IMG/VR virus record: IMGVR_UViG_3300019845_000023
Location: 69,058-122,050 of that record
DNA from: a virus
Taxonomy: Duplodnaviria; Heunggongvirae; Uroviricota; Caudoviricetes
DNA length: 52,993 nucleotides
Strand: one strand, 5' to 3'
The notes under the pieces were generated by a model that saw only the letters and a list, made by a program, of their open reading frames with translations, ran no database searches and was not told the origin of the DNA. Of the stretch, positions 1 to 52,991 are shown one piece after another. Each line of letters starts with the position of its first letter. Within the stretch, counting starts at the first letter, position 1. Both the position numbers and the translations under genes were made by a program.

Positions 1-1
1 C

Positions 2-232
2 GCCTCTATTTGCGAAGTATCCATAAGTCATACCCCACATCTTCTCATTTTTATTGACTAGCGGCACAGGAGTCTTTGCTGTAGGGAAGGGTTCCCAAGG
101 AAGTGCCGCCGAGATAAAAGGTGCACCGTCTGAATATCCGATATTAGGCCCACCGATATATGATGTTAATCCAGTCGCTCCATCGGTTCCATAGAACTAA
201 GGAGGATTTGGATATATCATTTCTGTACTCAT
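2..232 (-). CDS. 5' part of a gene running off the window edge; possibly glycoside-hydrolase-like (GH113-type N-terminus)
   Basis: GGGAGG RBS then ATG at 232; open to the window edge with one TAG (codon 12): MSTEMIYPNPP[Q]FYGTDG...KMWGMTYGYFANRG. Product call is weak. Confidence 0.6.
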
Positions 233-292
233 TTGCTATATCCCTCCCAAAAAATTTCACTATTTAAATAAGGTATCATACCTTATATTATA

Positions 293-321
293 ATATTAAC
301 ATAAATTTTGAAAAAAGTCAA
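293..321 (-). promoter_or_regulatory. σA-type promoter upstream of the gene starting at 232
   Basis: TTGACT-N17-TAATAT with TG before the -10; a perfect TATAAT lies 6 nt further downstream. Confidence 0.55.
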
Positions 322-324
322 ATA

Positions 325-1428
325 TTAAACTGGTTCGTTGTATATAAATTCTGTTAATGAATTGCCATTATAAATAACTTCTGTCATTTGATTTCCGTCA
401 TAATAAAATGGAACACCAGTTGGAGGTGGTGGCGGATTTTCTGGTATATCAAGCATAACTGGAATATACGGGAATCCGTTATTTCTGTTCGGGTCAATGT
501 GCCAATCTGTTGTTGCAGCTGAGTCAGTGCTGATTATGAAACCTTTGCTGTCAAGGTCGCTTTTGGACTTCATTTCTATTGTAGTTGCGCCAATTGTGCC
601 TGTAGGTAATGTACCGCTGTATTTATCAGTATTAACTAAGACGGAACTCATTTGTCCATAGTCCAAACGGAATCCGCCGGAAATATCGGCATTTATAACA
701 GTCTTTTGAAAAGTAGTAATATAAGAAAATCCAGCTATACCAGATACGTTACCTTCAATATAACAATAGTAAAAAGCACCATATAACTCATAATCATTGT
801 TTTCATAGGTTGCACGAATATTACAATATCTAATTCCAGCTTGCCAGTTCACTCCATTTGTAATCGAGCCGTCACCATTAAATGTTAGATTAAAACTACA
901 TACATCGATATATCCTAACATATATGTAACGTCAATTATAGCATTATATTCTTGACCAACAGAATATTTCTAAGCTGCTTCAAGACTACCTAAAAAACGA
1001 CAATACCTTATAAAAGTTCCACTACCAGAAGTTTGTGCTGAAGCCAATAATGCCACCGAAGCTCTCTATGAAGTATTTCCAGTCATATGTGCTGCAACAC
1101 CATTAGAATCGACTATGAAATCAATGAAATCAAGATATTCAACTCGACCACTGGCTTCATGTCCAGAAATTATAAATCCATAGTAGCTATAAGTGCCTGA
1201 AGTATTAGTAACTTTGGCATTTTTTATCTACCAGCCATTACCGTTGATAAATCCACGCAGCGGTATGTTATGCACTTCTCCATCTGTGTAGTAGTCACGC
1301 ATATCAAATACGCCGCCACCCTCTGGTAATTCAGTATACTTATTATCTGCTGTGGTGCATTGTAGAAATTCTTCCCAAGTCGTAGGCTTGTAAGGGTCTG
1401 CAGATGTGCCGCTGCCCGTTATCGCCAT
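325..1428 (-). CDS. Putative virion/tail protein, 367 aa (GSGT.DPY GLUG-like start, Pro-rich C-terminal linker)
   Basis: ORFs 1228-1428 and 325-921 are in one frame joined by 3 TAG (1228, 1066, 970); ends TAA; start overlaps the upstream TAA (TAATG). Confidence 0.8.
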
Positions 1429-4400
1429 TAATTTCCACCTCCATCGACAAAGTACATAATACCAGGTTCAGTTGCTTCAGAAGCAGACTAAACAACTTGA
1501 ATTGGAATTTGAGTTAATAATGCTTTGAGTGCTTCAAGCTATTTGAAACTAAATGATATTTCTTCATTAGTATTTGGATTACTTAAAGTAATACCACTTT
1601 CACCGCCTACCACTTCTGCTTTAATTCTAATACCATTATATAATCTAAATTCTGAATCATCAGTAATTTCTACAATAGGATTATTAGCATAGCTATTCAA
1701 GTGAGCATTACTATTATAGTAATATCTATATACTATTGTAATAGAATCGTTAGAATTTAAAATAATACTCTCATACTGGTCAACAATCTATCCACTTAAG
1801 AAAGTTTCAAAATCAGCATAGTCAGCACCTGCTTCAAACTGTTTAATAAATTCATATTTATCAGTTAAATCATAAGTCTCAGTAGGAGTAAAAGTATAGC
1901 TCAAATGAGAATATGCTCCTTGGCTCCAACCTTCTCTAAGTACACAGTTAACAGGTCCGTATGCCTGAATAATTGGAGACTAATCCCAAGTCTCAGTACC
2001 AACTCTATCTGCTGTTTGAATTGGACGATACCATTCTTTACCTAAATGTTGTGCCGCGCCCTAATATACAGAAGTTGTTGCTACTTTGTATCTTGGATGT
2101 TCTGCCGCATCATAGGTTCCTGTTTCTGCATTAGAGAAATCATAAGCTCCTACATTATAAGGTTTAGAAGAACTCTGATTTAAGAAGGTTTGAATATCTT
2201 CTGGTAAATCAGCATAAGGAGTATTAGGATAATTAAGTTTGTAATCAGTAGTATTATTTACAGTATTTTTAACTAAATAACTGTCGTATTCTGCAATAAA
2301 ATTCTTTACCTTATAATAATAGTATCCATATCTTTGCTGATAATAAGTAACTGTACAATTAGTTCCAGCAACAACTCGGTCACATTTAAAAGCATTTCTA
2401 AAGAATGCTTGTACTTTACTATTATTAAAGAAAGTGCTTGCGCTGGTTGATATATATGAATCAATATAAACTGTATATTCAGAAGAAACTAAATCTTTAA
2501 CATTTTTAACTTCAAGTGACTCAATGTACTCATATAAGCTAACTTCAGACCAAGAAGTGTAAGCATTTTTTAATACTATCTGATAATTACTATTATCTTC
2601 TCCTCCTACTATATTACGGACTCCCTTCTTAATGCCTGCTTCCGCACCGCTCATATTAGAAGAGCCTATATATTTATAAATATAATCCTTTTTATCAGTA
2701 ACAGTATGAGTTTTTGTAATTGTTATATTAGTAATATCCAAATAATATGAACCTAAATAATAACGATATGTTGTAGAACTACCAGAATAACGTGATAATT
2801 GAGCATCTGATTTAAGGGTAAGAGCAAAATTATTTCCGTATCCAAAAGTATCTCTTATCCAGTCTTTAAATTCTTGTGACTATACTAATGTACTTTCCGT
2901 ATAATAAGTATTAGAATTAAAATACTAAGTTGTATTCCAGTTAATTATTTTAACATTATTAATTGTTAAAGTTTCTGTATATTTTATTGGAAGTTTTGTT
3001 TTAGATGTTCCAGTAAATCTATTCCAAGTGTAATCATCATTATGAGGGTCGCCATTTGGTAGAGTAGTTGCATTTTTTAATTCAGTCGCAAATTGAGTTT
3101 CAATATCAGAAGTTGACATATTGCTTAAATCAGTATCAACAACAATTTCGCCCTAAACAGAAATTTCCTTAGTTGTTTCATACATTTTTGGATAATGCTC
3201 ATATTTAGTTCTACTATACTTTTCAGCTACAGGATTGACTTCGCTATTTCTTAAAATTACAGTACCGCTCCAAGACTCTAAATGAGTATTGCCGTCAATC
3301 TAAATAAAAGAATCATTACCTTCAAATATTCCCTTAAATCTATCCCATTGACAAATAATCTCACTATGTTTTGGTTCTACTGTTAAACCAAAAGCATACT
3401 TAGGGTCAAATTTAATTGCTGTAGTTCCACTTGGTTCAAAAAAGATAGAAGTCTCTGCAGAACTATCTGGACCAAATCGGAAATATGTACTACTTCCGTC
3501 ATTAGGAACAATGTCTCCAATAAGTTTAGAATTTCCTCCAATTCCATATTTAATTTGAGTTGTACTATTTCCACCACAAGAAGCTACAATACCAATAGTA
3601 GAACTATCTCTTGTTGCTAATTGCATACCCAATCTACCTGATTCTGAAGAACAGATATGCATACTAACAGGTCCTTCATAAGCAACTAAAGGATAACCTA
3701 TATACTTTTTCATTATATTTAAATCATCAAACTTAGTATTTATACTACAATGAGGATGGTCATAATCAAAAGTTCCAATCTAACTATGTTCAATACAGTT
3801 AGCTCTTGTACTATAATCTACCCAACTACCATTAAAGAAAATATTTGAACTACCATCCCATCCATCATGGTCTTTTCCATTAGTAATGGCACCACTACCA
3901 AAAACCATCTGTCCTCTATCGACAGAAACACAAGCAGGAAATTCTTCAGTACCTCTCATTCTTACCATAGACCCTGGATGAATATAAACTTGGGTTCTGT
4001 AACCTTCCTATAATTTAATTCCATGATTAGTATCGTGATATCCATTAGAATACTGACCACCATTAATATGAATATCAGCATTACCAGATAAAATTGCTGT
4101 CGCATTATTTCTCATTTGTAAAGTAGCTCTTTCATAAATAGAAACTGTTGCTCCGTCATGAATTTGGAGTATAGGAGAATTATCATTATCTCTGCCACTA
4201 AAAGGATTAATATACTTTCTAATATCTTCTCTGTCGGGATGAGCCTATCCAAGCCAATAATTAGGTCCTGGATTAGCATACATATCAATTAAACAGTTAC
4301 CTCTCATTGAAATAGCCGGAGTGCTACGAGGGTCTGCTCCGCCAAGCATTTCAATTTTTGCAGTTCCTTTAATTTTAATAGTAGGGCTTGTCAAAGTTTC

Positions 4401-4979
4401 TTCAAAGTCTTCTCCGCCCCACCATTTTATACCACTATATACAGTTTCTTTTGTGCCTATTTCAATTTTTGAGTCTCCATAAATTTTAGCTATAGCAGAA
4501 TCTGCACTGCTAAAACCATTTTTTAAATAGGTAATTGGATAATTAAACACGCCCTAAGTTGAGGCAGGTTTTATTGTACCAAAAGCGGTTTCAAATGGAG
4601 GTCCTTCAATCATTCCAATTCCGAAATAAGTTGGTGAAGGAGTTACTCCACCTGTCACAGGAGTTATATTATTATCTTTCCAAAATGGCATACTATAAAG
4701 ATTACAGTCATTTCCTTTTGCCCATTCTTTAGGTTCAACATTTCCAGTTCCAGTAAGTAACTGAGAGTAGCTTGCCTTAATCGGAGGAACATCTGCTCCG
4801 AGTGGATAAAACCGCTCAGTTTCAATGTCATAGCGATAAGGGATATTTGTTTCTTCGACTATATATAAATGGTTCTCTTTCTTATCGGTTAAATCGAAAA
4901 GGTCTTCATAGGCATAGACAGTAGTTACGTCATCTTCTGCTGCACCGAAAGGAATCCCATTACGAAATATAATTCCCAT
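1428..4979 (-). CDS. Large putative tail fibre/receptor-binding protein, 1183 aa
   Basis: Six track ORFs (4554-4979, 4245-4550, 3780-3968, 3300-3713, 2925-3119, 2061-2741) share one frame; 13 TAG, no TAA/TGA until 1428; GGAGG RBS; paralogous to 5057-7186. Confidence 0.85.
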
Positions 4980-5001
4980 TTATTATGACCTCCTATCATA
5001 G

Positions 5002-5036
5002 TGTGCCGCCCCTCAGATTTTTAGAAGGGCGGCGCA
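5002..5036. other. GC-rich intergenic hairpin (terminator or RNA-stability element)
   Basis: tgtgccgccc-N15-gggcggcgca between the two paralogous genes; no clear U-tract on the coding strand. Confidence 0.4.
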
Positions 5037-5056
5037 TTTAATTTATATTATTCTCT

Positions 5057-7186
5057 TTAAGTTTGTGGATGAATTATATTATATAAAGCCTATAAATCTG
5101 CCATACTAAAAGTAACGTCAGTAGTACCATCGCTAAATGTAAATTCAACCTCTGATGTTCCCTATTCAGCTTTAATCGTTGCGCCATCACGAAGACGAAG
5201 TTCTGACTCACCATACATTTCAAATACAGGAGCATGAGTAGATGTAGCTGAAGCAAGTCTTGGAATATCATTTGTAAATTTATATCTAATATGAACGATA
5301 TAACTACTATTATTACTTTCATTATTTATAGTATATGATATTAAAGTTCTATTATATGTAGCAAGTTCATCTAAAAAGTCTTGATATTTAGTAGAAGCCT
5401 CAAAATCTGATTTTGACATTGTTGTATTATTTGTAAAACTATATTCTCCAGTATACTCTCTTGAAATATCTGCCGCCATTGCAAAGTTAGATTCATCATA
5501 CATCTAAAAGACAGGTTCAGAATCATTCTATACAAATACAGTCCAATCTCTTCCTAAATGTGAATTGCTTGGGTGGCCACCATAAATGATATTTTCATTT
5601 GCAGGAGTTGTGGTTCTCATTATAAATGAGCCACCATGTAATTCGCTATGGAAACTTCCTGATGTTTGAATATAAGCATTATCTCCTTCAATTAAAGCAT
5701 CTAATGCACTCCATTGGCAAGTTATTTCAGTCGCTACATTTGGAGTAAAAGATATAGCACAGCTACCCTTTGGTGAGTAATTAATACTTGAAACACCATT
5801 TGGACAATAGTTAAAAACTGTATTACTACTGCCGGCTGGTTCAATGTTGTAAGCTGCGACAGCATTTTTGCCGTGACACATATTAAACATTACTATTGCG
5901 CCGCTATCTGTACCAATCTTAATATCTTCATAACCATATCCACTCCAGTCAATGGATGTATAAGCACCGCCACTTGGAGCTATTTTTGCAGCTAAATATC
6001 CGCTATCACCAATTGATAAATGAGTTTTACCCATGATATTTAATGTAGGCTAAAAAAGTTTTGGCATTAAAGTAGAAGGAAGACTACCTGGGCTAACACT
6101 GGAATTATAAATAAAATTACGATGATTATATAATCTATAGGAAAAACTAATTATACGACTACTTAAAGTGGCACCAAAATCATGGTCACTTGAATTATAA
6201 TCATAAATTCCATTATGAATACCATGCTATGCAGTTATTAAAAGTTTACCAGGACCGTCTCCACTGCTACTACTTTCAAGAGCAATCATTGGTCCATATT
6301 CGCCGCCATAGGTACCTGTTGACCTTGTCATTCTAATCATTGCGCCCGGTTCCATATATAAACCAGTTCTTATTTGACCAGAATTAATCTGTTTACCATT
6401 AAGGTCAGTTAATGCTCCACCACGGATAACAACATCTGCATTACCAGCCATTTCAAGACCCGCACTGTCTGCCATTTTAATAATAGAAGCGCCTTCCATT
6501 ATAACCGTACTTGAATTTGACATATGGAAATATGGAAAAATTTCTGCATCACTTAAACGAGTATAGTTACTACCATAAGGAGAGTAACCTTGATAGGCAT
6601 AATAAGCAACTTCAGACAGACATTTGTCACCAGAGCTATGCCTTGGTAAAGCGCGAGTATAGGTCTTCTAATTATTATGGTCCTAATAGGCATACATTTC
6701 AAAAATACCGGCTCCAAGCATTGAGATGACAGGAGAACTTCCTTCTCTTTTCATCATCTATAGTAATGGAGAACCATACATAAAGAACTTGGCATTATTT
6801 TTATTTTCGCCCCAATATAATTCTGAAACATCAGTTGTACTTCCTATTTCTATTGCTGTCATAGAAGTTTTCAATTTTGCAATGGATGAAACAGCGCCAG
6901 GACTTCCTATTGTCTCTGCAAACCAAAAGCTATGAGGCTTTACTCCACCTTCTCCGTCACCTATTACTATTTCATTCTCATCTGCCGCGATATTAAAAGT
7001 TGCAGACAAAGGAACAAACTCTCTGTTCTCAACATCCCAATAATACTCAGTATTATCAGAAGTAGTAACATATAAATGATTTGTTTCTTTATTTGGCAGA
7101 TTAGTTAAATCCTCAAAATTAGTTACAATAGTAACATCTTCTTTCGCCGCCCCAAAAGGTCTACCATTTCTAAATATAACTCCCAT
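5057..7186 (-). CDS. Putative tail fibre/receptor-binding protein, 709 aa, paralog of 1428-4979
   Basis: ORFs 6758-7186, 6227-6523, 5528-6034 and 5162-5503 are in frame; 8 TAG; ends TAA at 5057. Confidence 0.85.
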
Positions 7187-7443
7187 TAAGTATCAACCTC
7201 CTCTTCTGCATCAGGGTCGAATTCGGGGTGGTCTTCCTAATAAGCTGCGACAAGTTTATCATACTTAGTCATTAATTCATTTACTTTGTTAAGTAAATAT
7301 TCAACAGCATCAGAAAACTCTATATCTGTAACAAAGAATATTTGGTCTTTGTACTAATTCATAAAGTCTGGCTGTTCAGCGAGAGCAACATAATCATCCC
7401 AGGTTATGTCCTACTCATGCATTTTACGCTGTTCATTTGCCAT
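7186..7443 (-). CDS. Hypothetical acidic protein, 85 aa (absent from ORF track)
   Basis: GGAGGTG RBS; MANEQRKMHE[Q]DITWDDYVAL...EEEVDT*; 3 TAG; TAATG overlap with the next gene. Confidence 0.75.
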
Positions 7444-7526
7444 TTCCTTTGCACCTCCGTACAATTTGTTTTCTACATAATAAAGTAGAGATTTGAGTCG
7501 AAACGTCTAATCCTTTACTTATTGAT

Positions 7527-7555
7527 ATTATAGCATAAAAATAGAGAGAAGTCAA
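7527..7555 (-). promoter_or_regulatory. σA-type promoter embedded in the terminator hairpin
   Basis: TTGACT-N17-TATAAT with TG extension on the minus strand; the -35 is one arm of the 7543-7571 hairpin. Confidence 0.8.
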
Positions 7556-7575
7556 GTGTTGACTTCTCTCTTTTT
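7537..7575. terminator. Bidirectional intrinsic terminator
   Basis: 13-bp perfect stem AGAGAGAAGTCAA-gtg-TTGACTTCTCTCT with an A-tract before and a T-tract after. Confidence 0.85.
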
Positions 7576-7579
7576 AATA

Positions 7580-10500
7580 TTAGCTTATATGCTTATCTAT
7601 TCTTGTAATTGTAAGAGCTTCTGTTGGTATATTTGTTGCTTTCCAAGCTGAAGATTGACGTCCAGAGCTCTCATTTGGCCATAAGAATGTATATGGAGAA
7701 TTAGCAATTTTCTTTCCATAGAACATTGGATAATGGAAGTCACAATCTCCATTTGGATTGTCCCAATTATGTCCATTATGGTCTACGTTGCCTTTTCCAG
7801 TAGGCATATCTGCCGCCGCACCAATGATAATATAACCAATAGGAGGACGATTAAATATCCACTCTCCATTACTTACCCAGCAATTATCTATATTATGAGC
7901 TAAATATCTTGCTTCTGTTGAACTTGTTGCAACGTCTTTGGCTATTTCTCCCCAGTTGAATAATATAAAAGCAGTATGACTTAAATCAGCATAAACATCT
8001 TTTTCATAGCTATCATTTTGAGCTTCATAGTCATAACAAATTGGTATAATAAATACCTAACGAGCATGACGTACATTAGAAACAAATGCGTCTCCATAAT
8101 CGGCAATATCAGTCATTACACAAGGTTCTAAAGCCGGATTTACTCTATTTGGATACTAAGCTAATGCAAATGCATTACCATAAATTAATCCAATTGACTC
8201 AATAAAAGCATTAATTTTAGCCATACCTCTTACTTCATTATTTACATCTATTAAGTCTGTCATATAAGAAGTAGCAACTCTTCCACTTGATGCATCGCCA
8301 TTTATATTAATAAAATTAGTGAATAATCCTTGAGTATACCAACCACCAGTTACAGTATAAGATTGTCCATCCCAAGTATAAGTTTGGGCTGCTACTGCGT
8401 TAAGAGGAATAGTTCCATCCTTTACCCCTGAACTTAAAGTTAATCTTCTTGTTCCTTTTAATCCTCCATATCCACTATTTACAGTATCTATAAGATAACG
8501 GAATTGACTTTCATATCCTACACTTGGGTCTTGGTTAGCAGCTGAAGACCAGCACATTCCAGTATTATTGATTCCTTGTGAAATTCTGCCTTGAATCAAT
8601 CCATTTGGACGTGCGCCACCAGAAGTAACATATGTCATTGAGCCACTACTACCAGTTTCTCCAGCTATTGTAAGATAAGAATAGCAGCCAAGACCTGAAC
8701 GGACAATTGTTGTGCTTGCACTTTCACTAACTTCTTTCAGCTCTCCTGTACAAGGTGCTGTTAAAGACTCTGTTGGTTTAAGCATATTTGAAAGCTAAAT
8801 TAAATCTCTATATTTTTCTCCTGATTTATCTGTTAAACTTGGCTATAAATATTGAATACCTATTCCAGTTTTTCTTCCATAAACAGTATCCTTAAGAACA
8901 AAGCTTGGAGAATAACGATATGTCGCTCTTGAGCAACATTCAAGATGCAAATTTAATGGCTAATAATTAGTATAATCACTAACACCGCCAGGCAATGAAC
9001 CATCAATACCTTTAACATATGCCTTATCTGTATTAACTTTAGATGGGTCAAAATTAATCATTATTAATTCTAATTCTGCAACAGAATTATTAGGCATAGC
9101 AAGAACCTTAGTCGCATCATACTTATAAGTAGCTCTACCGCTACTTTTGTTAGAGATAATTATTTCTGCCAAACTAAATTCATTAGAACCAGCTTCTCTA
9201 TAATAAGCATAATAAGTTGGATTATACATAATTATATTTAAATCTTTAATAAATTCAAAATCTGCTCCATTTGCTACCATATTATCTAATGTTTTCAAAT
9301 ACCATCCATCTCTTGTAGAACCAGTATTTGCACTTGAAGCATCTACAGAAATATTATAGAAAAATGGATGTACCATTTTCTTTCCCTATATCTGTGATTT
9401 TGAAGTTGGGTTATCAGCAACATCAAAAGCAACTGTTGATTGATATAAATCCCATAAATTTAAAGATGTTGTACTATTATTTTGGCCGCCATTTGGATAT
9501 GCGCCAGTTTTATTCCAAGAAGAACAAAATGACTCCCAATCAGTATAGTCCAATTCTCTACTATAATTACTTAAATTATTATAAATTGGTACTTTAATTT
9601 GTCTTGCTCCACTACCTTTCTAAATATTAACATAAAGATTTGTTAAAGTATATCCCTGGCACATTGAAGCAAATTTATCTCCAACAAGTTTTACCTAAGT
9701 CTGTCCATCAAGACCAAGTAACAAATTAATCAAATTTACTTCACTGGTAATTTTATTAAGTTGTTTAATAATAGTATTGATAGCATCTACAATACCATCA
9801 TCTCTCCAAACAGCCTCAACTAAAGCGTCGCAAACCTATCCAAGAACCCAAAAATTCTTATCTAAATCTTCTACTTCCACTCTACGAGAGTAGCGAGGCA
9901 TAAGTAAATTCAAATAACTACTGAGTTTAGATAGTCTATTTGAAGGGAAAATACCTGTCTCTTTAACATATGCAATAAAATCTTCTTTAGTTACATATGC
10001 TTTTTGAGTTTCATTTCTTTTATTAATCTAATCTACAATAACCAAAATTTTTGTAGATAGTCTTGCGTCTATTAAAATTCCACCATCATAATGGACGGTA
10101 TCCGCTTTATTTACAAAGTCAGTAGCACATTCAGTAAGAGTCTTTCCCTAAGCATTAAAATAACAAGTATATTCTTCTCTTTCAGGCTATGGAGTACCAC
10201 TTTCTGGATAATATGATGTATCAAAACAACCTAAGTATAATGTTCCATTTGTTCTCTTAACAATAGGAATGGACTAAGAGTGATAATTTATTGAACCATC
10301 TACATAATCTAATAAGACATCATGTCTTCCTTCATTTTCATCCCATATGCGGTCAACTACAGTAGCTATTGAATTGTTCCACTTAACAGGGTCTAATTCT
10401 GTAATTTCCTGTATATCTCCATATTCAAAAACTCTATTGAAAAATCCAACTGGCTAAGTAGCAGAACCTGTTGAATAAACAGCATACATAGCGAGACTAA

Positions 10501-10942
10501 TTCTTGCATCATCTATACCAAGAACGCCATCATTACCGAAATCAAGTAAATCATAAAGCTGTTCGAGAGTAAGATTACCAACAAGGTATTCATCTTCAGG
10601 AATGTCGCCACCTTCTTCAAGAATTTTATTAGTAAAGTCCATATTCTTGATATGCATCGGAATCTCATCGTGGCGTGCTTCTCTATACTCAAGTCCAAGT
10701 TTATTAATTAAAGGTCTTGGATTCAAATAGTCTGGTAGTGTTCCTGTTGCATCAGCCTACAAAAGAGTTCTTCTATACTAATCATCGAAAAGAGCTCTAC
10801 TACCACCTATAGTATTATCACCATTTTTAGTTTCGTCTATGTATAAATTAGTAGTAAGCTAATCAATTATACTATCCCAATCTATCATACCATTCGCATC
10901 TTTTTCAAGAAGGGTAGGCTCTAATATAATATCTTTACTCAT
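7580..10942 (-). CDS. Large putative tail/structural protein, 1120 aa
   Basis: ORFs 10454-10726, 8960-9376, 8156-8785 and 7580-7807 are in frame; nearly all intervening sequence read codon by codon shows only TAG, no TAA/TGA; start overlaps the holin stop. Confidence 0.8.
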
Positions 10943-11258
10943 CTTCTTCCTCCTCCTTCTTTCCTATCACCCTTTCCCAAATCTTCTTTAGGGAATCAAA
11001 GCCATTCATACTAATGAACGCAATAATAAAACCATTAAGAACACTTGCCGCGATAGTAGCAAAACTAATAACAACGCCAGGTGCAAGGAATGGAATTATA
11101 ACAGCAATGATTAGAGCAATAATTAATGTTAATATCTAAGTAGGGAATTTCTTAGGTACTACATTTTTCATAACTTCAACTATAATCATAGTCAAAAATG
11201 CCATAGCACTTATTGAGCCTAAAGTTCCTAAACCTAAAGCTGCAAAAATACTCTCCAT
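10935..11258 (-). CDS. Holin, 107 aa (absent from ORF track)
   Basis: GGAGG RBS; about three hydrophobic segments, a KFPT[Q] linker and a highly charged tail (KKIWERVIGKKEEEEDE); directly downstream of the endolysin; one TAG at codon 41. Confidence 0.8.
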
Positions 11259-11304
11259 TGTTATCCCTCCTTTAAATTAAGGGGAGGTTTAACTCTCCCC
11301 TTTA

Positions 11305-12540
11305 TTATTTCTTAACAATTTTCATTTGAAGTTTATCAATCTTTCTACCATAGATACCTGCATAATCCTAAGTTCCAATTACCCAAGGTAAATAAGGACC
11401 GCCAACAGTAGATACTCTATACTGAACTTCATATCCATTGACGCCAGTGAGATATGCCTGAACTCCGTCAATCATATAAGCAGGAAGTCCTGCATAACCA
11501 TTATACCAGTCATTAGCATTATACTTAGTTATCCAACCAAGCCAGCCGCCACCAATAATGTGAACACGATAATGGAGAACTCCTTCTGAAGCTTTCGCCA
11601 TTAAACATCTTATTGGAGCATAATTAATACCAGCATATCCCATATCATTTGAATCATTACAATTCTTTATTTCTCCAAGCCAAGAATTTGTACGGACTTT
11701 ATAAATTACATCAATCTACTTCTTAGCTGGTGCAGCAGGAGTTGCTGGTTTAGCCGGAGTTGTTGGAGTAGGAGCTGGAGTAGCTGTTGGATATACAGCT
11801 TCACCTTTACTATTATAAATAGTATAACCTTCCTTCCAAGCTTTTTTAGCATTATCAAGAGAAGTATAAGCTCCAATCTAAGACTTAGTATCTGCCCAAC
11901 TCTTACGAATACGGTACATTTCAGATGTTGATGGAGTTGTGCCGCCCTTCAACTTATTCAACTCTGCTATACAATTAGCTTTAAAAGTTGCCCAGTGAGG
12001 GAGGATATAAATTGGACACCACTTGTATGGGTGCTTGCGAGTATTAAGATAATCGTTGCTTCCAGTAACACCATCACGAACATTAAGCCAATGAGTATGA
12101 GTGAAAAGATTATCTTCAACATTGAGATTATATTTGTTAAGTAAATAAGCTACTAACTTCGCACAGTTAGCTTCTGCCTTTGCAGAATTTCCGATTACTT
12201 CTATAGCAATAGTTTTTCTATTACCATTACCGCCGCCGTCAGCTGCGTGCCAACCACTTAAAGTAAGAGGGAGGCCCTACCAAGCACAATAATCATCAAC
12301 GTAGAAATGAACTCTTACGTCATTCATATTGCCGTTAACTGTTGCACGAGTATACTACTCTGCAGGAGTAGTATTTGAAGCTACTGAAATAGCCTCAGTA
12401 TTATGAACAGTAACGCCCAACGGAACAGCAGGAAGATTATAACCCGGCATATCAATACCATAAGGATTATGGTTTGTTAAAAGATATTCATAGACCTTTA
12501 ACCCATTCCAAGTAAAGGTTTTATCCGGTGTAAGTGGCAT
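11305..12540 (-). CDS. Endolysin: N-acetylmuramoyl-L-alanine amidase (Amidase_2 type) with Pro/Ala linker and C-terminal putative cell-wall-binding region, 411 aa
   Basis: Motifs VTVHNT, HFYVD..AW[Q]GLP, GWHAADG, TIAIE, FTHTHW, KWCP; 5 in-frame TAG (12355, 12277, 11878, 11716, 11368); ends TAA. Confidence 0.9.
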
Positions 12541-12591
12541 TATATCAACCTCCTTTATAGGAATAATCCTATTATTTCCTCTTATAAGTAG

Positions 12592-12627
12592 AAAAAGTCA
12601 CAAGGACTTATAATAAATCCCTGTGAC
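12592..12627 (-). terminator. Intrinsic terminator upstream of the endolysin
   Basis: GTCACAGGGA-N11-TCCTTGTGAC followed by TTTTT on the minus strand. Confidence 0.65.
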
Positions 12628-12701
12628 CTCTCTGTATATATAACTATTAATTGCAAAGCGGTTGAAGGGGCGCCGCCTGAGCCAGAGCAATTATATAGTT
12701 T

Positions 12702-13385
12702 TTAATAAGTTCTGAACTGTAGCTTATAAATTGAAGGTGTTGCATTATTTTGGCTTGAAGATGTTTCAATACCAACGAGATACTTACCAGAGTTTGGAAG
12801 TTCTCCGAGCATTATACCCTCAATATCATTTTGACTTGCTGTTCCATTATGAACAAAAGACATTGTGTATACTCCATTCTCTGCACCATTCATATGGTCG
12901 AGGAGCATTGAAATATACTAAGCGGTTGTTTTATTCTAATCATATGGGATAAGATGAACTTTAACTTCTGTACTTGTCCAGTCTCCTTCTGAAAGAGCAC
13001 AGGTTGAAATAACACGGTCTGAAGCAAAGTCAAGAACACGATTAATGAACATTGCTTTTACAGGAGTTAAAAAGTTCTAATTGTTATCTCTTGCTTGTGG
13101 CTGGAAATTAAGACCAGAATGGAAACCAGTCGCACCATTGATAAGGCACATCTTACCATTATTAGTAGTGTCTAAAATTATCCACTCGTAAGAATCAACG
13201 TAGACATTATCCCAATAATACTGAATAACATGAAAGTCATTGTTTGGGTCAATAACATAAGTATATTGACCCAAAGTATCAAGCATTTCCTATACGGTTA
13301 AATCTCCTGACATAAGTGTCTCAGGGATTTGAGAAATGACTTTAATCTGAGCACCGCCCTGCGGCATATGTAAAATTCCACTCAT
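12702..13385 (-). CDS. Hypothetical (putative tail-associated) protein, 227 aa
   Basis: GGAGTG RBS; ORFs 13077-13286 and 12702-12908 are in frame, joined by 4 TAG; ends TAA. Confidence 0.75.
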
Positions 13386-13397
13386 TTAAATCACTCC

Positions 13398-16040
13398 TTA
13401 ATAATATGTAATTTCAAGCATTATATCTCTATTACCTGTAATTACATCTTCTACTCTTACGCAACTATTCCATTCATTATCGTAATGAAGAGTAAAGTTT
13501 GGAGCACCTTCTGGACCAGATGTAGTATCTGTAATTGAAGTTTTATTTGTAGTACCATTACTAATCTATAACCAGAAATAACCTGTTTTAATAACAAGAC
13601 CAGGGCTATTACGACTAATTACAGTATAACGAATTAACATATAATTTTTAGTAGTATCTACAACAACATCTACTTTGTCATGACCACAAATAGTAATAAC
13701 TTTTCCATCATTACCTGCTCTTGCAAAAGTTGCGCCAACAACACTTGCATCGGTAATCATTGGTCGATAAACTCTATCTATCGCACCAGCATCATGAGTA
13801 ACTGAAAATACTAAATTTAAATTAGTCGGTCCAGTAAGGGTAAATGTTGTTTCACCATTATAGTTATCACAAATCTTTGTGCCGCTGTCTCGGTTATAAA
13901 GATTTAAAGCATATGTGGTACTTGAACCACCAGTACATCCTGATAATTTGTAAGTTCCTGCTGGTAAAGCTTCTTTAATTTCAATTGATGCGCTACCAGA
14001 AGAACCATACTATTGACCATTTGTTACAACGTAGACGCTTCCATCCTAACGTTTATAAACAGTATATCCAGTTGCTTCAGTAACAGTACCTAATGTAATC
14101 AAGTTAGAAGAAATATCTGCATTATCACATTTACTCTGTAGCGCCGCAACATCTGCTGCACTTGCTTTATTATTAAGAGCTGCTGTAATAACCTTATTCT
14201 GAACAGGATTTTCAGAAGCTAAACTTAAAGTATCATCAACTGTAATTACAGGAGTTACAGAAGTATATGAACCTTCAACTACAAGTAACATAGGAATATC
14301 AACTGAAGGCTGTTCACCATATGCCTTAAATACGATTGAACCATTATTGATTGCCTGAATAATCATTTTAGCACCAAGCAAACCATTAAGCTGGTTCTCA
14401 GTAATTCCTGCCGCCGGACCAACATCAATAAAGTTTGTTGTATTGATTGCCGCATTGCTATATGTATAATTATATGAACCGTCCTGCTGCTGTACCCAGT
14501 TAGCTGCTGAAAGTACGAAGCTATACTGCTCACTTCTGATTGTTACATCACCCGCATCAACATCTGCGCCCTCACTAAATAAAACAATTAAATGTTTATT
14601 GGCGTTAATTGTTGTACCAGTAATACTAATACCATCAGCACCAGGAGCACCGTCATCACCGTCTGTACCTGCAGGACCAGTCTGACCGTCAGCACCATTA
14701 GTTACTGTGAATGTTGATGTCGTGTTATTACTATAAGTAATAGTGTATGTATTTACAAGGCCAGTTGTATCAGTCTTTGTAACAGAAGTAATACCTCTAC
14801 CGGCAGGACCTGTTGCACCAGTTGCACCATTAGTACCATTTATACCGTTTGTAACTGTAAATGTTGAACTTGAGCCTGATGTGTATGTGATAGTATATGT
14901 ATCAACATTATCAACTGTAGCTGTTTTTGAAATAGAAGCAATACCTCTACCAGCAGGACCTGTTGCACCAGTTGCACCAATAAGTGAAGCTAAGAAATCT
15001 GCTTCTGAACCTTCATTACCTGCATCAAGCCAAATTTCATATGCAGAAGCACCGTCTTCTCCATCCTGACCATCTGTACCATCTTGTCCATTAGTACCGT
15101 CAGTACCATTAGTACCATCAGCACCATTAGTAACTGTGAATGTATCTGAGTTACCATTTGTATATGTAATTGTATATGTATCAACAAGACCAGAAGTACT
15201 GCTCTTTGTAATTGATGAAATACCATTACCGGCAGGACCTTGTAAGTTACCTGCATCAATAAATCCATTTACTGCCGCGGGGTCAGAACTGTTGGTGTAA
15301 ACCCAAAGATGTCCGTTAATTACATAACAATCACCCATCTGCTGACCGCTTGAAGGAAGATTACTTGAACTTGAAAGCTCTCCCTTAATGATAACTGATG
15401 TACCATCTGCGCCCTTTACAACACCTGCATCAAGTGATTGGTTATTGCTAAGAGTGATGATAAGGTGTCCAGAAGCATTAACTGTTGCTCCAGTAATTGA
15501 AACACCATCAGTACCGTTTGTACCATTAATACCATTAGTACCATTAGTACCGTTTGTTACAGTAAATGTTGTTGTGTTTGTATCGGTAAATGTAATTGTA
15601 TAGGTATCTACATTACCTGATGTACTTGTCTTTTCGATTGAAGCGATACCTACGCCATTTGTTCCATTAGTACCATTTGTTCCGTTTGTACCATTGGTAC
15701 CATTTGTAACAGTGAAAGTAGCGTGTCCACCATTTGTATAGTTAATGGTGTATGTATCAACATTACCCTCTGAAACAGGACCAGTAATAGAAGAAATACC
15801 ATTACCAGTTGCACCCGTTGCACCAGTCTGACCAGTAGAACCTTTAGAACCATTGGTTACTTCATAAGTTGAGGGAGAACCGGTTGTATAGTTTATTTGG
15901 TATGTATCAGTTGCACCTTCAATACCTGGCTAATCGCCGCCTGTACTTGAAAGCCAAACTATAGATTCAATACCTTTTCCGTCTTTACCAGCTGGACCTT
16001 GGCCGCCACCGCCACCATTAACGAAAGGATTAAAACTCAT
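13398..16040 (-). CDS. Collagen-like tail fibre protein, 880 aa
   Basis: GGAGGTG RBS; Gly-X-Y runs alternate with beta-repeat units; includes track ORFs 14046-15338 and 13566-13760 in frame; 4 TAG seen; ends TAA. Confidence 0.85.
14620..15990 (-). repeat. Coding repeat array: about 6 copies of G.GI.SI.KT.T.G.VDTYTI.YT.G...TF.VTNG separated by GXY triplets (GTN/GAT/GPA)
   Basis: Read from the translation; at DNA level recurring ccattagtacc and accagttgcacc units. Confidence 0.85.
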
Positions 16041-16055
16041 TTATCTCACCTCCCA

Positions 16056-16340
16056 TTAATATATGAACCATATTTTTTTAGTACATCCTGTTTTAAAAGT
16101 GACTGAATGTATCATCATATGGTTTGCTCCATCATAAGGGGTAATGAATTGTCCAGTAGATGGAACAATATTTGGAACGCCGTTAATTGTCAACTCTTCT
16201 CCGGCTGACTCTTCGAAGGCAATAAACTGAATTTTGCACTATTGACCTGGAGGAACAGTTCCAGTCAATTCCTTAAAAAGTAAAGGAACAATATTCTCGT
16301 CTGCCTAAGCAGTAATTTCAACACAAGCATACTGTGCCAT
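16056..16340 (-). CDS. Hypothetical protein, 94 aa (absent from ORF track)
   Basis: MAQYACVEITA[Q]ADENIVPLLF...KKIWFIY*; 2 TAG; TAATG overlap with the HPr-like gene. Confidence 0.75.
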
Positions 16341-16588
16341 TAGATTTCCCCTCCTAATTCGTTAAAAATTTCTTTTATTTTATCTAAATCATTCTCATCA
16401 TCAAATACAACAGTTATTACATCTCCCATTTTATACTAAGCACTTAATATGCCAATGAGAGATTTACCGTTAATAACTCTTTCACCAGACTGAATATGTA
16501 TTGATGAATGAAGTTGACTTAAATCCCAGTTTAACATAGTAGCTGTTCTTGCTACAATATCTCTATTTAATTTATATTGAAGTTTCAT
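16340..16588 (-). CDS. HPr-family phosphocarrier-like protein lacking His15, 82 aa
   Basis: DIVARTATML aligns to HPr GIHARPATVL, and NGKSLIGILS to NLKSIMGVMS (Ser46 kept); GGAGG RBS; one TAG at codon 51. Confidence 0.8.
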
Positions 16589-16607
16589 TCTCAATTCCTC
16601 CTTTAAT

Positions 16608-16636
16608 ATAATAACATTCTGTACAACAATAGTCAA
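16608..16636 (-). promoter_or_regulatory. σA-type promoter (leftward, HPr-like/fibre operon)
   Basis: TTGACT-N17-TATTAT with TG extension. Confidence 0.7.
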
Positions 16637-16664
16637 CATTTCGATTACAATAGCAATTAAATTG

Positions 16665-16693
16665 TTGACTTTTTACCTCAATTATGTTATACT
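16665..16693 (+). promoter_or_regulatory. σA-type promoter (rightward)
   Basis: TTGACT-N17-TATACT with TG extension; back-to-back with the leftward promoter. Confidence 0.75.
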
Positions 16694-16723
16694 TAGATGA
16701 AAATAAAAAATGAGGTGAAGAAA

Positions 16724-17665
16724 ATGAATGTAATCACAAAAGCTTTGCTCGAAGCAAAACTTGAACATCATAATCTTAACTTGTTCTATCCTATCGGCTA
16801 TGGAAATGAAGCCGAAACAAATATGAGAATAGAACAAAAAATAAGCGAGTTCCTTAACCGATATGGCAAATATGCAGAAACTCATACATTTGTTTTAGAA
16901 TATCACGACGATATCATAAGTGCTATGTGTTACAGAATGTTAAAAGCTATATCTGCTATGTCTACACCTATTAATTTGGTCATATATGGCAAGCGCCGCA
17001 AGACCAAAGATATTGTGAGGGGAGTAAAGAGAATCGGCAATTACCGATTGAAGAAATTAATGAAGCAAGAAAAAGCTATCTATATTTCTCCCTTTAATCC
17101 TCTATATAAAGTAACTGACTCTAAGGACATCTTCAGAGATTTCCCTAATGTTACTTGGTATCCAATGAAAGAATTTACTCCGTATCAATTGAAGGCAATT
17201 AGATTATTTTATCATCTTGGATATATTAAGAATGATATAATTGAAAATGATACTATTATAAATAATCTTCAGCATTGGTGTGAATGTAGCTATTCAATGG
17301 AAAATCACGCTTGGGAAAATATGAGCTTCCACTTTAATGACAATATTATTGAACCTTATGAGAGAGACATAATAGTCCTTTTCTTGACTCCTTCTCTCGA
17401 AAAGAATACAATATTATTGAGGGAAGTTGAGAAAACAGATTCGATTGTGCTCTACAAGTTCCCTGACAATGTAAGTGATGAAATACACGATAAAATAATT
17501 GACCAGCTCAGACAATATTCTATCTTTATTAAGAGTCATTCAAATGCTTACGGCTATTTAAATGACATTGATAAAGGAATTACTATTGAAGAATATCAAG
17601 AATTTTTCGGCAGTCATATAACTATATTAAATGAAAATAGCATAAAGGAGGAAGAAAATGTTTGA
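16724..17665 (+). CDS. Hypothetical protein, 313 aa; weak resemblance to a degenerate NAD-synthetase/PP-loop fold
   Basis: GAGGTG RBS favours ATG 16724; no TAG; product speculative. Confidence 0.7.
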   Translation: MNVITKALLEAKLEHHNLNLFYPIGYGNEAETNMRIEQKISEFLNRYGKYAETHTFVLEYHDDIISAMCYRMLKAISAMSTPINLVIYGKRRKTKDIVRGVKRIGNYRLKKLMKQEKAIYISPFNPLYKVTDSKDIFRDFPNVTWYPMKEFTPYQLKAIRLFYHLGYIKNDIIENDTIINNLQHWCECSYSMENHAWENMSFHFNDNIIEPYERDIIVLFLTPSLEKNTILLREVEKTDSIVLYKFPDNVSDEIHDKIIDQLRQYSIFIKSHSNAYGYLNDIDKGITIEEYQEFFGSHITILNENSIKEEENV

Positions 17666-18161
17666 TATAAAAATTTTTATAGTAAATGGATAGGGCGGCT
17701 CAGGTAAAACTACTTTTGAGAATTTTGTAGCTTAGGCTTGTGAAGGCGATGTCGCCGCCGTCTCAATGATTGATTATACAAAGCAATGTGCCGCCAAGCT
17801 TGGTTGGAATGGAGCCAAAGAAGATAAGGACAGACGTTTTCTTAGTAATTTAAAAGATGCTCTTACAGCTTGGGATGACAGCCCATTCCTTACCACTTGT
17901 GCTATGGCTCATATGGCAATTAAAGAAGGTTGTGAAATTGTCTTTATCGACGCAAGGGAGCCTGATGATATTGACAGATTAAAGGAAGCATTTAGTTGCC
18001 TTACAGTCCTTGTAAAAAGAGGAGGTCAGAAAGACTATGGAAATCATGCTGATGATGACGTTTTTAATTATAATTATGACATCGTTATTGAGAATAATGG
18101 AACGCTCGATGAACTTCGTGCTTCGGCAGAAGAGTTCGTCAAAATGACGAAAGGAGAATAA
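17658..18161 (+). CDS. P-loop nucleoside monophosphate (dNMP-like) kinase, 167 aa
   Basis: Walker A NG[Q]GGSGKTT is present only if TAG 17691 and 17733 are read through; VFIDARE and DIVIENNG motifs; GGAGG RBS. Confidence 0.85.
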
Positions 18162-49059: not shown

Positions 49060-49797
49060 GTGGCAGGAAAGCTTAAGTATGAAGATATAAAATAGGATAT
49101 AGAAAGTAGCGGTTGGCAATTATTGTCAACCGACTACGTTAATCTGAAAACAGATTTAGAGTTGAAATGTCCTGAAGGACACTTGAACTATGTATCCTAT
49201 GAGAAATGGCGCCGCGGCACGCATGAATGTCCAATTTGTAAGGAGAATAAATATTACCATACAGATAATATAGCCGTTAAAAAAACAGGTTTCAGAATAC
49301 TTGCTTTTGACCAAGCTTCAATTACATCTGGTTGGTCTGTATATGACGGAGATAAAATGATTAAATATGGGCATTGGACATCTGATGGCGCACATAGTAC
49401 AGAGCGTATAGCTTAGACAAAATAGTGGGTAGTTTCTATGATTGCTAAATGGAAACCCGATAAGGTAATTTTTGAGGATATTTAGTTATAGACATATAAG
49501 AAGAACCCACAGGAAGTCATTGAAATGGTTACAACATTTAAAAAGCTCGCTCATTTACAAGGAGTTCTTAAAAACTATTGTTATGAAAACGGCATTTTGT
49601 ATAAAATCGCCGCACCTGCAACTTGGAGACATCACTCTTAGGTAAAGGGTAACAACAGAACCGACCAAAAGAAAAGTGCTTAGCTAAGAGTTAAATCAAT
49701 CTATGATATTAGTGTATCATAGGATGAGGCAGATGCTATATTAATTGGTCGCTGGGCTGCATATGATTAGAAAGCAAATGAGATAATTGAGTTCTAA
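49060..49797 (+). CDS. ruvC: RuvC-like Holliday junction resolvase with N-terminal Zn-ribbon, 245 aa
   Basis: CPEGH...CPIC; ILAFDQAS...GW; FEDI[Q]L[Q]; LAHLQG; [Q]DEADAILIG; 9 TAG. Confidence 0.85.
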
Positions 49798-49806
49798 GGT
49801 GATATA

Positions 49807-50184
49807 ATGATAATATAGAGAAATACTTTGCCGATATTATCAAATATCTTTTCAAGAATTTCTGATACTAAATTTGATATAAATACTTAGTATAAGCTCT
49901 TAAAAATAAAGAAAGCGATTGAAGAAGAAGAAGAACTTTATTTAACTTAGTTAGATAGACTTCAAGAATATTGCTTAAGAGATGAGAATGGAAATCTCAT
50001 TAAAAATGAAGATGGCGGATATGCAATTGATACAGAAAAAGCTCAAGAATGTGCTGATATTGTAAAAGAAATAAATTCAATTCAAATACAAATACCAGAT
50101 ATTCAATTCAGTCTTGATGAACTTGCACCGCTTCAATTAACTTTTAAGGAGTTAGAAGTTCTTGACCCATTTATAAAAATATAA
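49807..50184 (+). CDS. Hypothetical protein (DUF1617-like), 125 aa (absent from ORF track)
   Basis: AAGGTG RBS; YKLLKIKK...RDENGNLI...G pattern; 3 TAG; ends at the terminator. Confidence 0.7.
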
Positions 50185-50221
50185 AAAGAAAGAGGTAAGA
50201 TTTATCTTACCTCTTTTTTAT
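50184..50221. terminator. Bidirectional terminator between convergent modules
   Basis: AAAGAGGTAAGA-ttta-TCTTACCTCTTT with an A-tract before and a T-tract after. Confidence 0.88.
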
Positions 50222-52095
50222 TAGTATTGGGATGTAATTCCAAAATATTCTTCTATTGTAGTATTCTTTAATTTATTCGCCCATTCAGTTCCTACATAAC
50301 GAACGTGCCAAGGCTCATAAATATATCCAGTAATACTATCTTTTCCATATGGATAACGTATGATAAATCCATATTCATGACAATGCTAAGCAAGCCACGC
50401 AGATTGATTTGGATATCGAGCAACATATCCAGTTTGTGAATCTGAACTTGCTGATGTTATATCAATCGCATATCCAGTATGATGTTCTGAATAGCCTGGT
50501 CTTGCTGAATATGTATCTCTTGTACTTGAAGGATAGCTATTGTAAATAGACTACTAATCAGAATAAGAACGATAGCCGCCGGTTCCATATAGACTTCCTC
50601 CGGATACAGACATCGGCTCATTACGAATATTATGCTAACTTGCATAAGCTTCCCATCCAGCTTTAAGACTATTATATGCTGCAATTGTTTCACTTCTTAA
50701 TCCACCGACAGCAGAAATCGCCGCCTAAGTCATTGGATAGGATTTATTGACAACAATCAATCCATCGAAATAATGACAGCCGCCCCTCTCTTCATGAGTA
50801 TGAGTCTCTTCATTTGGAATAACAGCAGGATTTGGCTCTCTTCTTGTCTAATCCATATCCCAGTTGGTAGTAAATATCGTATAATACAATCCAGGTAAGA
50901 ACTCTACAACTGTAGCCAAATTAATAATCGTAGCTTCACCTGGCACTGGAGTAGGTCCACTATGATTATTCTAAAATGGACAAGCCTAAAAACCTTCTAT
51001 AGTATGTGCCTAAGTTAAACCATAAGCAGGTCCATATCTAATGTTTTTATAAATTGTCTGTGCTTTTTCTAAATCCCAGTCAGATTTCTACTAAGACTCA
51101 GTAATAACATTATATGAGCCCCATCCTCTTTCTTGCCACCAACGGCAAAATGTTTCCAAAGTTGAACCCTCAGCTCTATAATTATAGGCAGTCTGGTAAT
51201 CAGTTGGAGAACGATATAATATAGTTGCTCTCAATAATTTAGCATATGAGATACCTTCTTCTCCCTCTCCAAATTCGTGAGTACATATTAAATAAGCCAT
51301 CTTTAGTCCTGGGTTAGTACTTAAAGTAGTTAAAGAATCTGGATAAGCTCCCATAAAGGCCTCAGACATTGATAATGAACCATATGAATCGCCATACTCA
51401 GGTACCATTGTTCCTCCCATTGCATTATTGCAAGAAGTTGGGTCATACTCAATACCACCAGGAGGCGGCGTATCAGAGTCACCCTGAATTTTAATATATA
51501 CTGGTTCCTAACTAAAAATAGCATATCCAAGTCTATCTCCAACAGCTTGACCTGCACAAGTTTTACTGCTGTATTCTGCATATGCCGCGGTACCAGTTCT
51601 TATTAATGGTTTAATATCAAGATGTAAATGAACATACTATCCAACAGGACCATCGAACCATTCACTTCCTTCTGTATGTCCGCTACAACCCATACCACCA
51701 ATAAGCTATCCTTTTTTAACTTTATCACCTATGTGCAAAGTAGGGAACTAAGGGTATTCAGATGGATTTACAAGATGACAATGATATATAATTAAATCTC
51801 CATCCAGAATCCCACTTGACTAAGATAATGTATTTTCAGCTAAAATAGTAATATCATTACCACCAGCATAACTTGTATCATATTGAGTAGAGCCATGATT
51901 ATAATGGACATTTGTGACTTCTCCATCACACATGGCGTATATTGGAGTACCAAGTCTATCTCTATAATTATCTGAAGTAGCTATATCCAATGGAGTATAA
52001 CCATGTCCACTATATGTTGTTATAAATCCAGTTGCCTTTGGGGCATTTAACCCCAAAGGATGGACAAAATATTGATTTAAATCTATTTCAGACAT
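50221..52095 (-). CDS. Multi-domain peptidoglycan hydrolase: M23 peptidase, putative SleB-like middle domain, VanY/M15B peptidase; 624 aa
   Basis: M23: PIYAMCDG.V, VKKG[Q]LIG, HLHLD; M15B: GYRSYSD[Q][Q], SARPGYSEHHTG.AID, YEPWHVRYVG; 16 TAG; ends TAA. Confidence 0.88.
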
Positions 52096-52100
52096 TCATA

Positions 52101-52991
52101 TCAACTCCCATAATATCCTGGGTCTAATAATCCATAAGTTTCGATAGAAGTACTACCTCCACCACCTTCACTACCAGTACCAGTATATTCAGTATAAGTA
52201 TTTTGACAGTCTATTGTGTATGGAACTCCAGCAATAGGAAGCTTGTTAGAAAAATAAATTTTCTATTTAGAGCCATAACTTCCTGTTACTTCATACCATC
52301 CTCTATAAAACATTTCAAATATTTCGTGTAAATTTACATATTCTTTATCTGCATTTTGTTTAAGTAGATGCTGAATTACAGTTAATCCCTAAGATGCTCC
52401 TGGTATATTTATTGTGGTAACGAATAAATCTTCCTCTGTTGGTAAATATGCAAATTGTCCTTCTGTACTAAATGAACCAGTAATTTTTTTAATTTCGTGA
52501 TTATGGCGAACTAATTTAATGCTGGCAACTGCGGTAGAAATAGCTTCATCTAATGGAATACCATTCTTATCTCGGATGTTATGGAAATCCAAGTACATTA
52601 CTCCTCGTTCTATCCAAATATCCGCATTTTTGATTTGTATTTCATCAGTAATTTTTGAACTTTGAGTAAGCAAACTGCTTCCAGTCTTATCATAAATATC
52701 TCCTCCCATATACAAAGAACCATCTTTTTTAATTGAGAAAATATTTTTAGCTTTTCCGTCAGTGTCTTTAGCACAGCAGAATAATCTTTCATCACCAGAA
52801 ACCTAATCTTCCAAAGCAATTTTATTGTTAATATATAATCCCGCCGCGCCAGTAACCGGCTGAATAGGAGTCTGCTATTCGCTTTGAGTGATAAAGCCAT
52901 AATTTATATCATTTTTATAATAAAAAGTTGGAAGTGTAGATAAAGATATAGCATTTTGACCCTAATCCTAAATATAACCAGTCTTTTCCAT
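52101..52991 (-). CDS. 3' part of a putative tail/baseplate protein, probably starting beyond the window
   Basis: Frame of track ORF 52389-52715 is open from the window edge to TGA 52101, with 6 TAG only. Confidence 0.7.

Follow-up and report, generated by a model that had tools for sequence, protein, structure and literature searches.

What might an HPr-like protein be doing in a phage, at the head of tail-fibre and lysis genes, without the histidine that HPr carries at position 15 and with a TAG codon inside its reading frame? HPr is the hub of carbon-status signalling in Firmicutes. The DNA analysed here (the window) is a stretch of 52,993 nucleotides, corresponding to bases 69058-122050 of a 122-kb IMG/VR virus record that is an estimated 81% complete. 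The features of the locus are collected in Table 1.

Table 1. Features of the HPr-like gene and its surroundings (window positions)
Feature	Positions	Strand	Remarks
HPr-like CDS, 82 aa (P0001, TAG read as Gln)	16340..16588	-	ATG 16588-16586, TAA 16342-16340
Codons Val12-Ala13-Arg14, equivalent to HPr His15-Ala16-Arg17	16547..16555	-	His lost, Arg invariant
Codon Ser43, equivalent to HPr Ser46	16460..16462	-	in near-invariant N-G-K-S-L-x-G-x-L motif
In-frame TAG, codon 51, decoded as Gln	16436..16438	-	aligns with HPr Gly54 / Crh Ala54
Shine-Dalgarno AGGAGG	16597..16602	-	8 nt before ATG; read from sequence
Sigma-A/sigma-70-type promoter match, TTGACT-17 nt-TGn-TATTAT	16608..16636	-	predicted; very short leader
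Divergent promoter match, TTGACT-17-TATACT, replication-module genes	16665..16693	+	
p94, 94 aa	16056..16340	-	predicted jelly-roll; translationally coupled by TAATG overlap with HPr-like stop; two in-frame TAG
Collagen-repeat tail-fibre protein, 880 aa	13398..16040	-	next in operon; 4 in-frame TAG
Endolysin (Amidase_2)	11305..12540	-	5 in-frame TAG
Holin-like protein, 107 aa	10935..11258	-	

An earlier note had recognised a phage HPr mimic here, and its coordinates proved right, with the gene on the minus strand. The family assignment was borne out by the Pfam profile PF00381 (PTS-HPr), which scored 38.1 bits against a gathering cut-off of 23 (E 1.6e-9) in a match spanning profile positions 10-78 of 81. 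NCBIfam models scored under their cut-offs, both those for HPr (TIGR01003, 28.1 vs 47.9 bits; NF010352, 28.4 vs 110) and that for Crh (NF010354, 31.3 vs 123). A phmmer search of PDB sequences returned HPr and Crh entries only, the best being 7ff5, a 'phosphocarrier, HPr family' protein of R. cellulolyticum, and a protein-cluster search with the TAG-free homologue P0055 found HPr-family clusters only, one of them viral. The match to HPr is far beyond chance. An alternative start at 16639, giving 99 aa, was rejected because it overlaps the -35 box and homologues begin at the methionine of MK(L/I)xYK.

The structure prediction also agreed with the proposal of an HPr fold. The AlphaFold2 model, made with a 75-sequence alignment, reached a mean pLDDT of 97.8, and its secondary structure (E2-7, H13-24, E30-34, E37-40, H44-50, E57-62, H65-76, E79-81) follows the beta-alpha-beta-beta-alpha-beta-alpha order of the HPr open-faced beta-sandwich. 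The best 39 Foldseek matches in the PDB were all HPr or Crh, with TM values of 0.86-0.88 to B. subtilis HPr (1sph, 1kkl_J); they included HPr chains from complexes with HprK/P and CcpA (1kkl, 1rzr, 2fep).

When aligned by phmmer with Crh (1zvv, 1k1c) and HPr, the protein keeps a constant offset of +3, so that Val12 falls opposite residue 15, Arg14 opposite Arg17 and Ser43 opposite Ser46. Loss of His15 and retention of Arg17 and of Ser46 (in NGKSLIG), which the earlier note had read with the same three-residue offset, are thus both supported. Lys42-Ser43-Leu44 sets Ser46 within a Lys-Ser-[Leu/Ile] context, beside Val12 at position 15. None of the 32 unique phage-clade sequences or of the members found by HMMER has His at position 12, which is held across the clade by V, A, L, T, G, S, E, K, N, Y and others. 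All 32 of these unique sequences have Arg14, as do at least 90% of those in the 75-sequence alignment. Judged from the sequences, the protein takes no part in PTS phosphotransfer, position 15 being Val here, hypervariable in the family and never His; the claim that it cannot carry PTS phosphate therefore stands.

Which parts of the protein are constrained? In the HMMER-derived alignment (A2, 75 sequences), on which the conservation claims rest, the only near-invariant residues are R14, A16, N40, K42, S43, G46 and L48, equivalent to HPr 17, 19, 43, 45, 46, 49 and 51; invariance of NGKSL among loci L010-L140 is partly built in, these loci having been found by pattern scans. The core of the surface through which HPr meets all its partners is kept, namely Leu/Ile14, Arg17, Ala19 and Asn43-Gly-Lys45-Ser46-Leu47-x-Gly49-x-Leu51 in HPr numbering. 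Like the Clostridia HPrs found here, the phage family has Asn43 and Gly49; in E. coli, which is without HPrK/P, both positions hold different residues. Ser46 also caps the N-terminus of helix 2 and is conserved even in bacteria without HPrK/P, so its retention is no proof of phosphorylation.

Around this core the protein has changed. Compared with Clostridia HPrs, the clade has lost the hallmarks Gly13 (now Asp), Pro18, Gly54 and Gly67, and has conserved features of its own, an aromatic residue (Trp/Phe) at HPr position 24 and Asp at position 59. The periphery of the interaction face is remodelled by the same Trp/Phe at position 24 together with Asn/Gln at position 21. Conservation of an exposed face of helix 3, I-K-E-I-F-N-E-x-G (K72, E73, N76, E77, G79), is confined to the phage clade and points to a partner that classical HPr lacks.

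The family forms a distinct, phage-only clade. A word-indexed search recovered 56 clusters, mostly of 82-84 aa, on contigs of up to 190 kb. An exhaustive HMMER search of 1.84 billion representatives gave 78 clusters (50% identity) at E ≤ 1e-3, with 27 at E ≤ 1e-10, and a pattern scan of IMG/VR gave 50 loci, many on contigs of 135-186 kb. Long multi-stretch matches to P0088, P0107, P0126 and P0129 were discarded as spurious, these being repeat proteins. The carriers of the clade are gut contigs of 135-190 kb. PHROGs had no family for the protein, tblastn found no match to it in 50,697 GenBank phage records, and BFVD held only a few auto-annotated metagenomic phage HPr-like models. Literature searches for phage-encoded HPr found no study. 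With a conserved viral His-less HPr, a phage would for the first time be seen to copy the carbon-status hub; the gene is a marker for an entire clade of uncultured gut phages of 135-190 kb, probably of Clostridia.

In a quick tree of 91 columns with 67 Clostridia HPr sequences, the phage sequences formed one group behind a long branch (SH-aLRT 99). Clostridia and Oscillospiraceae HPrs are the nearest bacterial sequences, at 30-46% identity; they share the fold and a nearly identical helix-2 motif (NGKSLLGVLS in the bacteria, NGKSLIGILS in the phage). They differ from the phage protein in having His15, Gly13, Pro18, Gly54 and Gly67, and the phage gene, unlike that of canonical HPr, is not beside ptsI or other PTS genes.

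Two kinds of His-less bacterial relative invite comparison. Crh is reportedly a natural His-less HPr paralogue that is phosphorylated on Ser46 by HPrK/P and serves as a co-repressor of CcpA. Like the phage protein, Crh of B. subtilis is an HPr-fold paralogue without His15 that keeps Arg17 and Ser46 at the +3 offset. However, B. subtilis Crh has Gln at position 15, where the phage protein has Val and its family almost any residue, and the phage protein, which reaches only about a quarter of the Crh model's cut-off, is phage-encoded, heads a tail-fibre/lysis operon and bears the phage-specific helix-3 surface.

The second kind comprises His-less paralogues of Clostridia (e.g. L064 and L066), which resemble the phage protein in being small and stand-alone, in lacking His15 and in keeping Ser46. 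They have Arg, Gln or Glu at position 15 (the 7ff5 alignment did not show residue 15), and differ from the phage protein in being chromosomal and in scoring 76-79 bits against PF00381, compared with 38. In the tree, L064 and L066 nest among bacterial HPrs and are not sister to the phage clade. The two genes (L064:4956-5222 and L066:4962-5228, from Clostridia MAGs) are stand-alone HPr paralogues in which Arg replaces His15, and variants with 'GLQSK' or 'GLESK', similar to PDB 7ff5, occur in other Clostridia. Paralogues of HPr without His15 seem to be common in Clostridia.

The gene comes first among the cistrons of its strand, both in the window and in relatives of as little as 37% identity. 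A match to TTGAC(T/A)-17/18-(TGn)TAnnAT lies 46-56 nt before the ATG in 16/26 relatives, although the flanking sequence has diverged. The gene heads, as far as the sequence can be read, a late tail-fibre/lysis operon behind a host-type promoter, and the earlier proposal of a first cistron behind such a promoter is upheld. Window positions 16589-16723 form a 135-bp divergent intergenic region with back-to-back sigma-A-type promoters, whose AAAAAGTCAA / TTGACT boxes are conserved across relatives. On the opposite strand lies a divergent replication module encoding a ~300-aa protein, RNase H and DNA ligase. The first of these in the window, of 313 aa (16724-17665, plus strand), is conserved in relatives, where it likewise lies divergently beside the HPr-like gene, and has no PHROG match; in one relative (L009:3389-4972) a LAGLIDADG homing endonuclease gene lies between the RNase H gene and the ~300-aa gene.

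Downstream, a p94 homologue of 94-99 aa follows with an overlapping or close start in 26/48 informative IMG/VR loci. In the remaining loci, short coiled-coil proteins or tail-fibre N-termini take its place, followed by tail-fibre/lysis genes. The model of p94 (pLDDT 90.7) is a small jelly-roll; p94 has no sequence match in Pfam or the PDB, and its fold matches are weak, generic jelly-rolls (Z ≤ 5.1). Complex prediction for the TAG-free HPr-like and p94 orthologues of locus L008 (alignments A4 and A5) gave an ipSAE of 0.01, which weighs neither for nor against binding. The tail fibre that follows in the window contains long Gly-X-Y collagen-like repeats with interspersed 'TYTITY(T/S)' modules.

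If the protein engages a classical HPr partner, where would that partner come from? HPrK, LacI/CcpA, PRD, EI and Hanks-type kinase are all absent from the genes encoded in the 122-kb phage record, and a classical partner would therefore have to be the host's. The nearest bacterial homologues come from Oscillospiraceae, Ruminococcus and other Clostridia, and three full-length copies on contigs of 32-184 kb (L061, L062 and L063) were binned with Fimenecus, Oscillospiraceae and Ruminococcus MAGs. HPrK/P is present in each of the three MAGs (~240 bits), which is weak evidence on the host. The three contigs look like clade phage genomes binned into MAGs, and their placement may be a host hint or a binning artefact. 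From metagenomic binning and sequence similarity, the host probably belongs to the Clostridia, family Oscillospiraceae.

Our tentative reading, to which we give a probability of roughly 40%, is that the HPr-like protein acts as a Crh-like substrate or decoy of host HPrK/P, with binding to CcpA possible. We favour it because the constrained residues coincide with the classical HPr partner surface and a phage partner of known type was not found. An abundant small phage protein would engage host HPr partners through this kept surface in a Clostridia host. The likeliest partner would be HPr kinase/phosphorylase, with Ser43 as a Crh-like substrate or decoy site, and the Ser-phosphorylated form might in turn bind CcpA. 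In both cases carbon-status signalling would lose its link to the PTS in the late phase of infection. Host HPr might then stay unphosphorylated on Ser46 and free for sugar uptake; alternatively, a 'glucose-replete' signal might be imposed on the host. Such a protein would provide a compact natural tool in which the regulatory role of Ser46 is split from the transport role of His15.

Several observations count against this HPrK/P reading. The gene is always found in the late structural module and not among early host-takeover genes, and the lost hallmarks, the remodelled positions 21 and 24, the phage-only helix-3 face and the NCBIfam scores below cut-off all weigh in the same direction. A pure analogy with Crh is strained by the tail-fibre/lysis placement, the loss of Gly13, Pro18, Gly54 and Gly67, and the phage-specific surface.

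The next alternative is re-use of the HPr scaffold for a partner within the phage, for example in assembly or as a chaperone, or in regulating the tail-fibre/lysis module; host PTS and carbon catabolite repression would then not be the target. The gene heads tail-fibre/structural genes in all relatives, which share only 37-99% identity, and p94 begins at or near its end in about half of the informative loci. The exposed helix-3 residues and the aromatic at HPr position 24 are phage-specific, a long and well-supported branch separates the clade from bacterial HPrs, and in recoded members translation occurs only under the late TAG=Gln code. However, about half of the loci keep the HPr-like gene but have something else in place of p94, so that the former cannot depend on p94. 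Moreover, the most constrained residues are exactly those of the classical partner surface, and no phage structural protein with an HPr fold was found in PDB or BFVD, where all significant matches were HPr or Crh. We regard a phage-internal role as rather unlikely on this evidence, but the constant placement in the structural module, together with the phage-specific surface of helix 3 and position 24, keeps it or a sensor role in play.

As a variant of the phage-internal role, the protein would be a sensor module with its output through the helix-3 surface. A bolder reading takes the protein for a sensor owned by the phage and not for a decoy: host HPrK/P would phosphorylate Ser43 at high FBP/ATP and dephosphorylate it at high Pi, and the helix-3/Trp24 surface would pass this signal to a phage partner from the same operon, acting in tail-fibre assembly or lysis timing. 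We consider such a phage-owned sensor improbable; if it were true, the virus would time its late functions to the energy state of the host.

Similarly doubtful is a dead-end competitor, which would occupy the EI N-domain, an EIIA or some other host protein under HPr regulation and so stop PTS phosphotransfer or sugar uptake, in place of acting through HPrK/P and CcpA. The Leu14/Arg17/Leu47/Ile48/Leu51 patch, which in established structures is the surface used by EI and EIIA, is retained, and without His any such complex would be non-productive. On the other hand, Pro18, Gly13 and the helix-1 residues 21 and 24 are changed, and stopping sugar import would bring the phage no obvious gain. At 82 aa the protein is defined and easily expressed, and suits the study of how recoded phages manipulate or monitor host metabolism late in infection.

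There remains the TAG at codon 51, where the HPr-like frame ends when read with table 11. When TAG is read as Gln, the fragmented minus strand of window positions 1-16640 opens into long ORFs, each holding 1-17 in-frame TAGs; these ORFs include the collagen-repeat tail fibre, the Amidase_2 endolysin, the holin-like protein and several proteins of 700-1200 aa. In-frame TAG occurs only in structural and lysis ORFs (window 1-16640, minus strand, and 49060-52991). The plus-strand replication genes from 16724 to ~46352, which include those for RNase H, DNA ligase, NrdD, topoisomerase II and DNA polymerase, contain none in their table-11 ORFs. Gut phages recoded from TAG to Gln (code 15) are documented (bioRxiv 10.1101/2021.08.26.457843; PMC10607447). 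As in the window, their in-frame TAG is limited to structural and lysis genes, their replication genes are TAG-free and they carry a suppressor tRNA(CUA); unlike in the window phage, an HPr-like gene does not appear in the text of either article, of which the first concerns stop-codon recoding and the second phAss-1.

The 122-kb record likewise carries two adjacent tRNA(CUA) suppressor genes, at record bases 51724-51879 and thus outside the window. Both have a U1-A72 pair and an A73 discriminator, as does the phage's own tRNA-Gln(CUG), to which they also show their best identity (67-68%). TAG and Gln codons interchange between close homologues. At codon 51, SA-TAG-YK of the window corresponds to SAQFK in the close homologue L011; conversely, L011 and L013 have IH(L/I)-TAG-S where the window has IHIQS, and L006 has LS-TAG-LHSS where the window has LSQLHSS.

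The earlier note had held that read-through of TAG at codon 51 is needed to complete the fold. That the codon must be passed for the full fold is correct, but gene-specific read-through is contradicted by the two tRNA(CUA) genes and by the exchange of TAG and Gln codons: this is ordinary sense decoding of TAG as Gln. Programmed read-through specific to codon 51 was rejected as well, since there are relatives with TAG at codons 8, 9, 18, 25, 33 or 54, or with none. The TAG at codon 51 is common to the closest relatives. The HPr-like family is present also in relatives without in-frame TAG in their long frames.

Selection acts on both sides of the codon. Against six relatives, dN/dS was 0.11-0.27 for codons 1-50 and 0.10-0.37 for codons 52-82, and the purifying values of the latter indicate that the stretch beyond the TAG is translated. 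That TAG might be a true stop, leaving a pseudogene or a mere 50-aa fragment, agrees with the table-11 frame and with the fragment held in some databases (P0049-P0054), but is exceedingly improbable given that TAG=Gln opens all long late ORFs of the window, that the record encodes two tRNA(CUA) with tRNA-Gln-like acceptor features, that homologues have Gln codons at TAG positions, and that codons 52-82 are both under purifying selection and required for the complete HPr fold. The pseudogene reading is effectively refuted. We conclude that the gene is genuine and under selection, that it encodes a His-less HPr-fold protein belonging to a phage clade, and that its full-length product is made only when phage tRNA(CUA) reads TAG as Gln. 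A tryptic peptide across codon 51 would test this decoding directly by proteomics. Two arrays on the 122-kb record (record bases 2862-13975 and 47522-53251) together hold 49 tRNA genes, and a tmRNA lies at bases 17539-17884 (tag ADYAIAA), all of them outside the window.
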